Virus record (IMG/VR): IMGVR_UViG_2565956731_000002
Length of the DNA stretch: 21,775 nucleotides
From: a virus
Lineage: Duplodnaviria; Heunggongvirae; Uroviricota; Caudoviricetes
Reading direction: 5' to 3' (one strand)
Under the pieces are notes generated by a model. It saw only the letters and a list, made by a program, of their open reading frames with translations, made no database searches and had not been told where the DNA came from. A program made the position numbers and the translations under genes. Position 1 is the first letter of the stretch. Each line of letters opens with the position of its first letter. Positions 13,026-19,075 of the stretch are shown piece after piece.

Positions 13026-13409
13026 ATGCGTGATATTCAGATGGTTCTTGAGCGTTGGGGAGCGTGGGCGGCTAATAATCATGAAGATGTGACCTGGTCG
13101 TCCGTTGCCGCCGGTTTTAAGGGATTAATTCCTTCAAAAGTAAAATCTCGCCCGCAATGTTGTGACGATGACGCGATGATCATTTGCGGGTGCATGGCCC
13201 GTCTGAAAAAGAACAACAGCGATTTACACGATTTATTAGTAGATTATTATGTATGTGGTATGACATTCATGTCACTGGCAAGTAAGCATTGCTGCTCGGA
13301 TGGTTATATCGGGAAAAGGTTACAGAAGGCTGAGGGCATAATTGAAGGGATGTTAATGGCATTAGATATCCGGTTAGATATGGATATCGTTGCTAATAAT
13401 TCTAATTGA
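13026..13409 (+). CDS. quuD: Late-gene antiterminator Q (DLP12 QuuD-like)
   Basis: [26 protein letters not shown]…[18 protein letters not shown]… recognised as QuuD-type Q; ATG at 13026 with GGAG upstream (the ORF track begins at an upstream TTG at 13011). Confidence 0.85.
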
Positions 13410-13424
13410 TATGCAATTGTTTAC

Positions 13425-13597
13425 TAAAAGTTATTAAAAATGGGGCGTGGAAACGCCCCCAAAATAAAGGGTAATATATAACAGAAGGTTTATATAGTAA
13501 GAAGCAAGGTAGTGCTTCTAAAGGAAGTGGCTTGAGGGCTCCACTTATATGTTGCGGAGGCAAAGCCTCCCGCAACATATCTTTTTCGTAAGTCAGA
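13425..13597 (-). ncRNA. ipeX: nmpC 3' UTR with its own minus-strand terminator; corresponds in position to the IpeX regulatory RNA described downstream of nmpC/lc
   Basis: Highly structured stretch between the porin stop (13598) and a minus-strand hairpin GGGGCG-TTTCCA-CGCCCC (13442..13459) followed by AUUUUUAAUAACUUUU. The published description places ipeX between the nmpC stop and its terminator. Confidence 0.4.
13547..13588 (+). terminator. Plus-strand intrinsic terminator about 140-180 nt downstream of Q; candidate tR'-type terminator of a short 6S-like late leader
   Basis: ATATGTTGCGGAGG-CAAAG-CCTCCCGCAACATAT (about 14-bp stem with one bulge) followed by CTTTTTCG. It is not a terminator on the minus strand, where there is no U-run after the hairpin. 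Confidence 0.5.
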
Positions 13598-14680
13598 TTA
13601 GAACTGATAAACCAGACCTACAGCGACGATGTCGTCGGTATCAATACCAGCTGTTTTGGTAAACTTACTATCGTCAATTAAGTTGATTTTGTAATCAACA
13701 AAAGTGGACATGTTTTTATTAAAGTAGTAAGTAGCACCGACATCGACATACTTGACTAAGTCTCGGTCACCATGAACACCAAGGTCTTTACCTTTTGACT
13801 GAAGGTAAGCAACAGATGGTCGCAGACCGAAGTCAAACTGATATTGTGCTACTGCTTCAAAGTTTTGTGCTTTGTTTGCAATATGGTTATTACCAAAAAC
13901 GGTCATATTCTGAGTTTCAGAATATGTGGTAGCCAGATAGATATTGTTCGCATCATATTTCAGGCCTGCAGCCCATACTTCCGCATTTTTGCCGGAGGCA
14001 TTGAATTTGCTCTTACCATAGGCGACCTGACCGTCAGTGCGATCTGATTTAGCATAGGTTGCACCCACGCCGAATCCTTCATACTCATAAGTAGTGGAGA
14101 AACCGAAACCATCACCATTGGCTTCAGTTACGTCAGTGCGGTCATTTTTACCCTGATACTGAGCAGCAAAGTTCAGGCCATCGACCAGACCAAAGAAGTC
14201 GTTGTTACGATAAGTTGCAACACCAGTAGTGCGACCAGTCATGAACACATCTGTTTGGGTCCAGGTATCACCACCGAATTCTGGCAGGACGTCAGTCCAC
14301 GCACCGATGTCGTATGCTACACCGTAGTTACGGCCGTAATCGATTGAGCCGTAATCACCAAATTTCAGGCCTGCAAATGCAAGACGGGTTTTGTCTTTGG
14401 AAGAACCTTGAGATTCAGCACGGTTGCCTTTGAATTCATATTCCCACTGACCGAAACCAGTCAGTTGATCGTTGATTTGGGTTTCACCTTTGAAGCCAAG
14501 ACGGGCATAAGTAGTATCACCATCATCTGCATCATTAGAGGAGAAGTAGTGCTTGGCATTAACTTTCCCGTATAGATCCAGCTTGTTACTGTCTTTATTA
14601 TAAATTTCAGCTGCCTGAGCAGACATCGCCATCAGTACTGATGCAGCTACAGCAGAAATTGCCACTGTTAATTTTTTCAT
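13598..14680 (-). CDS. nmpC: OmpC/OmpF-family general porin (NmpC / Lc type), intact, with signal peptide
   Basis: [40 protein letters not shown]… and the C-terminal …VAVGLVYQF are typical enterobacterial trimeric porin; location between Q and the holin as in DLP12/PA-2. Confidence 0.9.
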
Positions 14681-15108
14681 TGTACGCCCTTTTTTTTGAA
14701 CTATTATTAAAAAATGATGTCACTGCGCGATAAATATTCATCTAATCAATGCGATTATTTCAAGATGTAAGTTTTAGTTTCTCATTTAATTTGTGAAGTA
14801 GATCTCTATTTTTATCTGAACCTTTTCTATCTAATCCTATTCATGGCTCTTGTTTGAACGAAAATAAATCTATTAGCTAATTTATATTAATGGCACTTAT
14901 TTATAAGCGCTCTATAATTCTTTAACTTAATTTAAACAAACTAAAAATAACATCGGAAATTATTCATTGGTTATTTGTTGAAGTTTTCTTATGTATTTGT
15001 GGTGGTGTTTTGAACACTCGGTGGCATTCTCACAAATATCATTTAGTAGTTTACGTACGTAAAAAATTGGTTATGCTGTTAAGAGTGGTTACTTCGTCAC
15101 ACAGCTTA

Positions 15109-15140
15109 AACCCGCCGTCGAGCGGGTTTTTCCATTTTTT
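15109..15140 (+). terminator. Plus-strand intrinsic terminator inside the 590-bp AT-rich region between the porin start and the holin
   Basis: AACCCGC-CGTCGA-GCGGGTT hairpin followed by TTTCCATTTTTT; no ORF of meaningful size upstream on the plus strand. Confidence 0.55.
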
Positions 15141-15269: not shown

Positions 15270-15485
15270 ATGAAATCCATGGATAAGTTAACAACGGGTG
15301 TCGCCTATGGCACCTCAGCAGGTAGTGCCGGGTACTGGTTTTTACAGTTGCTCGATAAAGTCACGCCCTCACAGTGGGCGGCAATAGGTGTGCTGGGTAG
15401 TCTGGTATTTGGCTTGCTGACGTATCTGACAAACCTTTATTTCAAGATTAAAGAAGATAAGCGTAAGGCTGCGAGAGGTGAATAA
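15270..15485 (+). CDS. essD: Phage 21-type class II holin/pinholin with dual-start motif (Met1-Lys-Ser-Met4)
   Basis: [71 protein letters not shown] closely matches S21 as remembered; GAGGTGGGG ribosome-binding site; stop overlaps the next start (TAATG). Confidence 0.85.
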
Positions 15486-18400
15486 TGTCGCCATCATTAC
15501 GCAAGGCTATTGCTGCTGCTATTGGTGGTGGGGCTGTTGCCATAGCGTCTGTGCTCATCACTGGTCCGAGTGGTGACGATGGCCTGGAAGGTGTCAGCTA
15601 CATACCATACAAAGATATTGTTGGTGTATGGACTGTATGTCACGGGCATACAGGAAAAGACATCATGCTCGGTAAAACGTATAAAGGCAGCAGTAAGGGG
15701 CATACCCCGCGCGAAGCGAAGGACAACCTGAAATCCACGCAGTTACTGAGTGTGATCGATGCCATCAGCGAAGGGCCGATTGAAGGTCCGGTGGATGGGT
15801 TAAAAAGCGTGCTACTGAACAGTACGCCGGTGCTGGACACTGAGGGGAATACCAATATCTCCGGTGTCACGGTGGTGTTCCGGGCAGGTGAGCAGGAGCA
15901 GACTCCGCCGGAGGGGTTTGAATCCTCCGGCTCCGAGACGGTGCTGGGTACGGAAGTGAAATACGACACGCCGATCACCCGCACCATCACGTCGGCAAAC
16001 ATCGACCGTCTGCGTTTTACCTTCGGTGTGCAGGCACTGGTGGAAACCACTTCAAAGGGTGACCGGAATCCGTCGGAAGTTCGCCTGCTGGTTCAGATAC
16101 AGCGTAACGGTGGCTGGGTGACGGAAAAAGACATCACCATTAAGGGCAAAACCACCTCGCAGTATCTGGCCTCGGTGGTGGTGGATAACCTGCCTCCGCG
16201 CCCGTTCAATATCCGGATGCGCAGGATGACACCGGACAGCACCACAGACCAGCTGCAGAACAAAACGCTCTGGTCGTCATACACCGAAATCATCGATATG
16301 AAACAGTGCTACCCGAACACGGCACTGGTCGGTGTGCAGGTGGACTCGGAGCAGTTCGGCAGTCAGCAGGTGAGTCGTAATTATCATCTGCGCGGGCGCA
16401 TTCTGCAGGTGCCGTCGAACTATAACCCGCAGACGCGACAATACAGCGGTATCTGGGACGGAACGTTAAAACCGGCATACAGCAACAACATGGCCTGGTG
16501 TCTGTGGGATATGCTGACCCATCCGCGCTACGGCATGGGGAAACGTCTTGGTGCGGCGGATGTGGACAAATGGGCGCTGTATGTCATCGGCCAGAATTGC
16601 GACCAGTCGGTGCCGGATGGTTTTGGTGGCACGGAGCCGCGCATCACCTGTAATGCCTGGCTGACCACACAGCGTAAGGCGTGGGATGTTCTCAGTGATT
16701 TCTGCTCGGCGATGCGCTGTATGCCGGTATGGAACGGGCAGACGCTGACGTTCGTGCAGGACCGGCCGTCGGATAAGGTGTGGACCTATAACCGCAGTAA
16801 TGTGGTGATGCCGGATGATGGCGCGCCGTTCCGCTACAGTTTCAGCGCCCTGAAGGACCGCCATAATGCCGTTGAGGTGAACTGGATTGACCCGGATAAC
16901 GGCTGGGAGACGGCGACAGAGCTTGTGGAGGACACGCAGGCCATTGCCCGTTACGGTCGTAACGTCACGAAGATGGATGCCTTTGGCTGTACCAGTCGGG
17001 GGCAGGCACACCGAGCCGGGCTGTGGCTGATTAAAACGGAACTGCTGGAAACGCAGACCGTGGATTTCAGCGTGGGCGCAGAAGGGCTTCGCCATGTGCC
17101 GGGCGATGTTATTGAAATCTGCGATGATGACTATGCGGGTATCAGCATCGGCGGGCGCGTGCTGGCGGTGAACAGCCAGACCCGGACGCTGACGCTCGAC
17201 CGTGAAATCACTCTGCCATCCTCCGGTACCACGCTGATAAGCCTGGTTGACGGAAGCGGCAATCCGGTCAGCGTGGAGGTCCAGTCCGTCACCGACGGCG
17301 TGAAGGTAAAAGTGAGCCGGGTTCCTGACGGCGTTGCCGGATACAGCGTGTGGGGGCTGAAGTTGCCGACGTTGCGCCAGCGCCTGTTCCGCTGCGTGAG
17401 TATCCGTGAGAACGATGACGGCACGTATGCCATCACTGCCGTGCAGCATGTACCGGAAAAAGAGGCCATCGTGGATAACGGGGCGCACTTTGACGGCGAC
17501 CAGAGCGGCACGGTGAATGGTGTCACGCCGCCAGCGGTGCAGCACCTGACTGCCGAAGTCACCGCAGACAGCGGGGAATATCAGGTGCTGGCGCGCTGGG
17601 ACACGCCGAAGGTGGTGAAGGGGGTGAGCTTTATGCTTCGCCTGACCGTGGCAGCGGATGACGGCAGTGAGCGGCTGGTCAGCACGGCCCGGACGACGGA
17701 AACCACATACCGCTTCACGCAACTGGCGCTGGGGCGGTACACGCTGACAGTCCGGGCGGTAAATGCGTGGGGGCAGCAGGGCGATCCGGCGTCGGTATCG
17801 TTCCGGATTGCCGCACCGGCAGCACCGTCGAGGATTGATCTGACGCCGGGCTATTTTCAGATAACCGCCACGCCGCATCTTGCCGTTTATGACCCGACGG
17901 TACAGTTTGAATTCTGGTTCTCGGAAAAGCGGATTACCGATATCAGGCAGGTTGAAACCACAGCCCGCTATCTTGGCACGGCGCTGTACTGGATAGCTGC
18001 CAGTATCAATATTAAGCCGGGCCATGATTATTATTTTTATATCCGCAGTGTGAATACTGTTGGCAAATCGGCATTCGTGGAGGCTGTCGGTCAGGCGAGC
18101 GATGATGCTTCCGGCTATCTGGATTTTTTCAAAGGCCAGATAACTGAATCCCATCTCGGCAAGGAGCTGCTGGAAAAAGTCGAGCTGACGGAGGATAACG
18201 CCAGCAAACTGGAGGAGTTTTCGAAAGAGTGGAAAGACGCCAACGATAAATGGAATGCCATGTGGGGCGTCAAAATTGAGCAGACCGAAGACGGCAGGCA
18301 TTATGTCGCGGGTATTGGCCTCAGCATGGAGGATACGGAGGAAGGCAAACTGAGCCAGTTCCTGGTTGCCGCTAACCGTATCGCGTTTATTGACCCGGCA

Positions 18401-19075
18401 AACGGGAATGAAACGCCGATGTTTGTGGCGCAGGGCAACCAGATATTCATGAACGAAGTGTTCCTGAAGTATCTGACGGCTCCCACCATTACCAGCGGCG
18501 GCAATCCGCCGGTATTTTCCCTGACACCGGACGGGCGGTTGACGGCGAAAAATGCCGATATCAGCGGTAACGTGAATGCGAACTCAGGGACGCTCAATAA
18601 TGTCACGATTAACCAGAACTGTCGGATTCTGGGAAAACTGTCTGCCAACCAGATTGAAGGTGATATTGTCAAAACGGTGGGAAAAGCCTTTCCGAGAAAT
18701 GGCAGTTATGCCAGCGGTACAATAACGGTCACTGTGTACGATGACCAGGCTTTTGACCGTCAGATAGTAATCCCACCCGTTCTGTTTCGCGGTGGTAAGC
18801 ATGAAAACTTCAACAGCAACAACCAACAGTCATACTGGTATTCAACCTGTAAGCTGCAGGTACTGAAGAACGGACAGGAAATCTTTCAGCAACCCGCGAC
18901 GGATGTCAGCAGGGTATTTTCATCCGTCATTGATATGCCAGCGGGACACGGCCATGTCACCCTGACTTTCAATGTTTCTTCATATGGTGCAAATAACTGG
19001 ACGCCAACGACCAGTATCAGCGACCTTCTTGTTGTCGTGATGAAGAAATCAACAGCCGGTATCAGTATCAGTTGA
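15485..19075 (+). CDS. J: In-frame deletion fusion: first ~65 codons of a SAR endolysin (R21-like) joined to nearly full-length tail-tip host-specificity protein J (from J residue ~3)
   Basis: N-terminus [66 protein letters not shown] matches the R21 SAR endolysin start; from ~15677 the sequence [39 protein letters not shown]… is lambda J from its N-terminus through >1000 aa. The last ~150 aa diverge from lambda J. Confidence 0.85.

Follow-up and report, generated by a model that had tools for sequence, protein, structure and literature searches.

The quuD-porin spacer of a DLP12-like prophage is an IpeX-type porin 3' UTR, and late transcription probably starts beyond the porin gene

The spacer between the Q antiterminator gene and the oppositely oriented porin gene of this prophage (positions 13410-13597 of the window, that is, of the whole stretch of 21,775 nucleotides analysed) raises the question of which RNAs end in it and from where the late genes are transcribed. 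The original prediction had placed overlapping regulatory RNAs on both strands, a lambdoid late leader on the plus strand and a structured porin 3' UTR of the IpeX type on the minus strand. The explanation reached here, which we consider highly probable, is that the spacer is the IpeX 3' UTR of the porin mRNA, that porin and IpeX together form a moron located between Q and the late promoter pR', that late transcription starts past the porin, and that the hairpin at 13547-13580 is not a tR' terminator.

The window represents a defective lambdoid prophage of E. coli that resembles DLP12. A region of 2.4 kb around the spacer was 100% identical to many chromosomes in which the gene order ylcG - quuD - porin - essD is annotated. 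The genes needed for the following description are:

13026..13409, plus strand: quuD, Q antiterminator of the Q21/933W family (PF06530), 127 aa, Pfam E 9e-54
13598..14680, minus strand: intact nmpC/lc-type porin of 360 aa, Porin_1 E 2e-151, stop codon at 13598-13600
15270..15485, plus strand: essD, holin and first late gene, Phage_holin_2_1 E 2e-35, annotated as essD in the identical genomes

QuuD matched the Q21 structures at E 3e-8 and was 80% identical to Q933W over aa 1-120. The similarity ended abruptly at codon 120, and the C-terminal ~24 residues of Q933W were missing from QuuD. The porin was 90.7% identical to Lc of PA-2 and 81% identical to NmpC of P7. Using the porin as query, 80 copies of the locus were retrieved, all of them identical and thus without diversity. 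The porin of 'Salmonella phage SPF_0923' was considered as a phage moron and rejected, as it represents the chromosomal ydbK-ompN-uspF region. Downstream of essD, a single ORF of 1196 aa (15485-19075, plus strand) fuses an endolysin N-terminus (Phage_lysozyme, aa 34-83) to domains of the tail tip protein J. The stretch from the lysis genes to J was lost by deletion, and the prophage is therefore defective.

The spacer showed 97% column identity to the quuD-nmpC spacer of DLP12 in E. coli K-12, and in this region PA-2 is the same as K-12. The K-12 spacer is the published IpeX locus, and the minus strand of the window is an IpeX-type porin 3' UTR. IpeX is a 167-nt RNA of DLP12 that forms part of the porin transcript, originates from the porin promoter and represses OmpC and OmpF (PMC12197685; also PMC5069750 and PMC7177473); it was described for DLP12 and phage PA-2 by Castillo-Keller et al. 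2006, as cited in PMC12197685 and PMC5069750. As a class, IpeX is characterised by a post-transcriptional lowering of OmpC and OmpF, in multicopy or with the porin transcribed. The element in the window lies directly 3' of the stop codon of an nmpC/lc-type porin and on the same strand, adjoins quuD, is homologous to the ipeX region of K-12 and PA-2, and with ~167 nt and a Rho-independent terminator at its end also agrees in size and architecture. The UTR begins at 13597, and the distance from the porin stop codon to the minus-strand U-run was 162-165 nt. The minus-strand identification in the original prediction was thus correct, and it was already known for this locus. The differences from K-12 are small and consist of a few substitutions in hairpin loops, the position of the SL1 bulge and the closing pair of SL2; in addition, the porin gene of the window is intact, whereas nmpC of K-12 is interrupted by IS5. 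The elements of the UTR are listed below.

13433..13597, minus strand: IpeX-type 3' UTR of the porin mRNA, ~165 nt, 97% identical to K-12, fold z -7.0
13547..13580, minus strand: SL1, 5' stem-loop of IpeX, 15-bp stem with one bulge, -21.9 kcal/mol, z -6.1, equalled by 0 of 200 shuffles
13525..13546, minus strand: SL2, 4 of 7 pairs changed on both sides, 96.7% paired
13500..13519, minus strand: SL3, 4 of 9 pairs changed on both sides
13462..13497, minus strand: conserved block, mostly single-stranded, between SL3 and the terminator, proposed seed with complementarity to ompC and ompF
13436..13459, minus strand: predicted intrinsic terminator of the porin/IpeX transcript, stem 13442-13459, U-run 13436-13440, from a terminator scan, -13.8 kcal/mol

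The element was present between quuD and a porin gene in 2510 of 5426 complete E. coli genomes (~46%), and it was 100% identical in plaque-forming lambdoid phages. A scan of genome contigs of species representatives with the SL2 pattern yielded E. coli only, plus one contaminant contig. The latter, NZ_VJYK02000722.1, is a 442-bp contig filed under Streptomyces alkaliterrae that was 94% identical to the spacer and is almost certainly the product of assembly contamination. No Rfam family reached its gathering score anywhere in the window, and permissive thresholds gave only matches at chance level; IpeX has no Rfam model. In the K-12 RefSeq record NC_000913.3 micF and micC are annotated as ncRNA, while the quuD-nmpC spacer carries no ipeX feature. 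A 58-aa ORF on the minus strand (13402-13578) was rejected as a gene because it had no Pfam match and its frame is broken by single-base indels between alleles. By the same indels the region 13433..13597 is non-coding. Since the flagged feature proves to be an RNA already known, from a prophage remnant that is very common, its recognition adds little on its own.

The hairpins noticed behind Q in the original prediction were well above chance. Compared with dinucleotide shuffles, the fold of the whole spacer had a z value of -7.0 for the minus strand and -4.2 for the plus strand. Conservation of the structure was examined in a set of 13 distinct alleles from E. coli genomes, phages, P7 and IMG/VR. 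Over SL1, SL2, SL3 and the terminator, which covaried, 96.5% of the cells were paired and 12 pairs were changed on both sides, which was equalled by none of 500 shuffles, while controls in which the pairing was slid along the alignment were paired to 54.5% at most. Compensatory changes in SL1 were found in the alleles L070, L073 and L061 and in the P7-type alleles. In SL3 several cells were G.U solely in the minus-strand reading. Altogether 16 G.U cells were counted in the minus-strand reading and 4 in the plus-strand reading of the 13 alleles, so selection appears to act mainly on the minus-strand RNA. An AU hairpin local to the conserved block of the window allele was not kept in other alleles.

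The terminator stem at 13442-13459 comprises 7 bp, 6 of them GC, and is followed on the minus strand by AUUUUUAAUAA (AUUUUU). Stem and U-run were kept in 13 of 13 alleles, while the loop varied freely. P7 has a compensatory stem followed by 7 U, and its porin gene follows ssb without any Q gene. The scan and the conserved stem and U-run together bear out the proposal that the minus-strand porin transcript ends at this hairpin. No entries for quuD, nmpC, ipeX or essD are present in the Term-seq supplement for E. coli K-12 (Adams 2021), and the locus is silent in K-12. Transcription from the porin promoter would be expected to proceed leftward through the porin ORF, to continue for ~165 nt via SL1, SL2, SL3 and the unstructured block, and to stop at the intrinsic terminator 13442-13459.

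The late promoter was sought by comparison with phage 933W, in which Q runs directly into the annotated pR' (-35 TTTACG, -10 TATCAT), followed by qut and a terminator. Window positions 15046-15135 aligned column for column with this 933W pR'/qut/terminator region, the shared positions being TAGTTTACG..CGTAAAAA..TAT..TG.TAAGAGTGGTTAC...AACCCGCCG..GCGGGTTTTT. The module follows the porin promoter region just upstream of essD, 1.6 kb past the Q-proximal spacer, and contains:

15046..15092, plus strand: pR' homologue, -35 TTTACG at 15050-15055, -10 TATGCT at 15072-15077, putative start A15084, from the alignment to the annotated pR'/qut of 933W
15080-15092, plus strand: initial transcribed block TAAGAGTGGTTAC, exact in K-12, 434B, PA-2, VT2-Sakai, 933W and Chlobot
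15108..15140, plus strand: promoter-proximal, tR'-like intrinsic terminator from the terminator scan, the sole one before essD, aligned with the first annotated terminator after the 933W pR'

A module homologous to the late leader of lambdoid phages with its order pR'-qut-tR' (6S RNA in lambda, StxS in Stx phages, PMC7547250) is thus located at 15046-15140 of the window. In the Stx phages of strain Sakai, which are near-identical to 933W, the late-promoter start was mapped by dRNA-seq (together with Term-seq) 258 nt upstream of tR' (PMC7547250). In 933W a distance of exactly 258 nt leads from the A seven bases downstream of TATCAT to where the T-run of the second terminator ends; the coordinates of PMC7547250 were matched to 933W by this spacing and not directly, as the RefSeq record has since been revised. 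The Sakai spacing fits a promoter homologous to the pR' of the window. The mapped tR' of Sakai corresponds to the second terminator, and the window has the promoter-proximal hairpin only, without the distal tR' that defines the 258-nt StxS precursor, so the hairpin at 15108-15129 is to be regarded as a putative working tR'. Window 15046-15140 is the homologue of the 5' part of the StxS precursor region.

Further comparisons agreed with this position of the promoter. The order of Q, antisense porin and the block AGAGTG(G/A)TT(A/G)C was the same in two prophages whose spacers were 72-81% identical. The mutant phage 434B, whose DLP12 segment has nmpC::IS5 placed between Q and pR', is viable. For the lysis operon of DLP12 a separate regulatory region under control of Q has been reported upstream of essD (PMC7918800). 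The homology therefore supports a start of Q-dependent late transcription beyond the porin gene, at a pR' just upstream of essD. In such an arrangement pR', the Q-loading region and the promoter-proximal terminator at 15046-15140 would serve late transcription from beyond the porin. This corrects the map of DLP12-type prophages, explains why phages tolerate IS5 in the porin gene and explains how lysogens can express the porin without a collision with the constitutive pR' transcript.

The interval between Q and pR' also indicates how the locus arose. Q of 933W abuts pR', whereas in the window 1.64 kb lie between Q codon 120 and the -35 element of pR'. Porin and IpeX are therefore regarded as a moron inserted between Q and pR', and late transcription need not cross the porin gene. 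Positions 15048-15062 encode S-L-R-T-stop, a remnant of the longer C-terminus of the ancestral Q, and the junctions of the moron lie inside the ancestral Q 3' end. As in other lambdoid morons, a gene with its own AT-rich promoter region and terminator is located in opposite orientation between conserved functions, here Q and pR', and it is absent from 933W. In the PA-2 record, the annotation of lc includes CRP sites and a promoter region. Unlike in the usual lambdoid morons, the terminator-proximal UTR is here itself a regulator of host genes. In phage 1H12 a QuuD-like Q (87% identical) is directly followed by a lipocalin gene, blc, in opposite orientation, and no porin is present, which suggests that the gap between Q and pR' is a hot spot for moron insertion.

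On the plus strand of the spacer one further feature has to be considered:

13581..13588, plus strand: tail C-TTTTT-CG after SL1, read from the sequence, which with SL1 makes a plausible plus-strand terminator for transcription leaving quuD

This tail contains five T in the window allele and in K-12. In other alleles it reads CTTTTAG, CCTTTAT, CTTGTTAA or TCTTACC, and in L073 CTTTTTTAA; the plus-strand T-run is allele-specific and not conserved. NZ_CP148331.1 holds a DLP12 remnant that has lost quuD by deletion, with ybcM followed by the spacer; its porin and 3' UTR are kept, and its tail is only CTTTGAG. A sigma-70 promoter scan of the end of Q and the spacer yielded nothing of at least 9/12; the best matches in 13380-13590 were two 8/12 sites without conservation in diverged alleles, one of which falls within the minus-strand terminator, in its variable loop. 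Consensus scoring is of no power here, as the pR' homologue also scored only 8/12 and a weak promoter in the spacer would be indistinguishable from it. Alignment of the 933W pR'/qut region to the Q-proximal spacer found no counterpart.

The original prediction had assumed a late promoter at the end of Q, with the hairpin at 13547-13588 acting as the tR' of a 6S-like leader and Q-dependent transcription reading antisense through the whole porin gene to reach the holin. A strong hairpin and a run of five T are indeed located on the plus strand 140-180 nt past the Q stop codon, as in the lambda late leader, and the sequence GTTTAC..TAAAA at 13418-13429 weakly resembles the -35 region of pR'. Nevertheless, the likeness of the hairpin to tR' is confined to the generic shape of a hairpin plus T-run. 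The spacer showed no homology to the promoter, qut or pause element, nor to the pR'/initial region of phages with the same type of Q, and neither an identifiable promoter, conserved or feeding SL1, nor any likeness to qut was found near the end of Q. The 933W homologue was kept at 15046-15135 in all alleles examined, which places the late promoter immediately upstream of the holin, a location that the original prediction itself had named as incompatible with its model. In addition, the T-run varies as described, the hairpin is present in P7 without any Q gene, and 434B tolerates IS5 within the porin gene. We therefore regard a late leader in the spacer as very improbable, and of the two overlapping RNAs that had been proposed the minus-strand IpeX is retained, while the plus-strand late leader is given up.

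Transcripts of quuD may still overlap IpeX. SL1 and its T-run could at most end non-antiterminated transcripts leaving quuD, which would then overlap IpeX by ~155 nt, just before such transcripts enter the porin ORF in antisense direction. Two terminators might consequently work face to face, one at 13442-13459 for the porin transcript and one at SL1 plus T-run for quuD transcripts, insulating the moron and giving the two RNAs ~155 nt of perfectly complementary 3' ends; the Q mRNA could then titrate IpeX or trigger its cleavage after induction. This arrangement is conceivable, and we judge it somewhat less probable than not. The stability of SL1 speaks for it, as do the CUUUUUCG that follows and ends 9-12 nt before the porin stop codon, the lack of a plus-strand U-run at the 13442-13459 hairpin, which rightward transcripts would therefore pass, and the T-rich tails of most Q-linked alleles, including L073 with six T. 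However, the tail is reduced to 3-4 T in many alleles and absent in P7 types, the G.U counts point to selection on the minus strand, four A-U pairs at the base of the stem followed by a C would make a poor terminator geometry, and N-modified early transcription would ignore a terminator at SL1.

The conserved block of IpeX was compared with the leaders of its target genes. Nucleotides 107-136 of IpeX were complementary to the ompC leader from -32 to -6, the Shine-Dalgarno sequence being covered (window 13476-13490 and 13462-13470). Nucleotides 108-122 (AACCUUCUGUUAUAU) could form 14 Watson-Crick pairs and one G.U pair with ompC -21 to -7, over GAGGG, and nucleotides 128-136 a 9-bp helix with -31 to -23. 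When the plus strand was aligned to the ompC leader, the score was reached by 1 of 1000 shuffles. IpeX nucleotides 117-130 (window 13468-13481) matched the Shine-Dalgarno region of ompF in 13 of 14 positions. The P7-type tail contained a 22-bp complement of the ompF start region, and the L073 type matched both ompC and ompF. The porin 3' UTR of P7 type has its hairpins and terminator in common with the window allele, and it shares UUAUUUAUUACC with MicF. No complementarity signal was obtained between IpeX and the leader of the phage porin itself, the score being reached by 62 of 100 shuffles.

Duplex energies were calculated for windowed duplexes with opening energies, using MicC and MicF as positive controls. 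By this one crude method, values of -26.1 kcal/mol for IpeX-ompC, -22.5 kcal/mol for MicC-ompC and -23.4 kcal/mol for MicF-ompF were predicted. Full-length RNAduplex runs of IpeX against targets of 140-170 nt were dropped, as they gave meaningless whole-molecule duplexes. The loop nucleotides 109-116 and the linker 124-128 of IpeX were predicted to be mostly unpaired, as in base-pairing sRNAs. Among 7 E. coli alleles the conserved block formed the longest run without changes, although the invariant 26-nt run over the seed in these alleles was not significant alone (~0.2 expected by chance). The pattern by which the diverged IMG/VR alleles were collected is itself part of the seed block, which biases their conservation there, and P7 alone is free of this bias. 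IpeX resembles MicC and MicF in that a single-stranded stretch facing the ompC leader (the MicC site, -32 to -14) and the ompF Shine-Dalgarno sequence (the MicF site) is followed by a terminator, and the predicted duplex energies of IpeX are equal or better. It differs from them in being the 3' UTR of a phage mRNA and not a free-standing chromosomal gene, in having its seed internally and not at the 5' end, and in that its pairing is only predicted and is denied by published reviews.

Reviews state that IpeX is without complementarity to its targets and does not act by base pairing (PMC3617542; PMC10690425; PMC12197685), and its effect on ompC was reported to be Hfq-independent (PMC8313858). 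Both statements favour the view of the literature that IpeX lowers OmpC and OmpF by other means, such as titration of a factor or envelope stress, in which case the block might be conserved for, e.g., Hfq binding or processing. Against this stand the 15 contiguous pairs and the 9-bp helix with ompC, in a duplex predicted to be stronger than MicC-ompC, the 22-bp ompF complement of the P7-type tail and the absence of complementarity to the phage porin leader; the Hfq independence could be explained by the length of the duplex. Action without pairing is therefore rather doubtful, though still a serious alternative. As the reviews deny a complementarity that is predicted here, it was either overlooked or dismissed in the original paper.

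We tentatively propose, close to the point of balance between acceptance and doubt, that IpeX acts as a conventional antisense regulator, its block 13462-13490 (nucleotides 108-136) copying the ompC leader in inverted form and, in P7-type alleles, the ompF start, and that a quuD transcript possibly ends on the other strand. The IpeX tail, either released or acting while linked in cis, would lower the synthesis of OmpC and OmpF by pairing of the block with the initiation regions of ompC (-32 to -6) and ompF, over the Shine-Dalgarno sequences of the host porins as MicC and MicF do, while the phage porin leader, having no target, would escape. If the quuD transcript does end there, the Q mRNA would carry a perfect anti-IpeX tail after induction. 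The pairing model could settle the question, standing since 2006, of how IpeX represses OmpC and OmpF, and such a mechanism bears on porin loss and on antibiotic permeability in clinical E. coli with an intact copy.

Some additional features of the window were recorded. Inside quuD, on the minus strand at 13246-13275, a 10/12 sigma-70-like site (GTGACA-18-CATAAT) was found whose placement recalls the antisense promoter paQ of lambda. A 1423-aa inverse autotransporter of the intimin/invasin type with IAT_beta and Big_1/Invasin_D3 repeats is encoded on the plus strand at 5737-10008, and an alpha/beta hydrolase gene on the minus strand at 10045-11088 is convergent with it. Both genes lie within the prophage, with the replication gene P on one side and ybcN on the other. 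In genome H1, which has identical flanks, the autotransporter copy is shorter and comprises 1302 aa.
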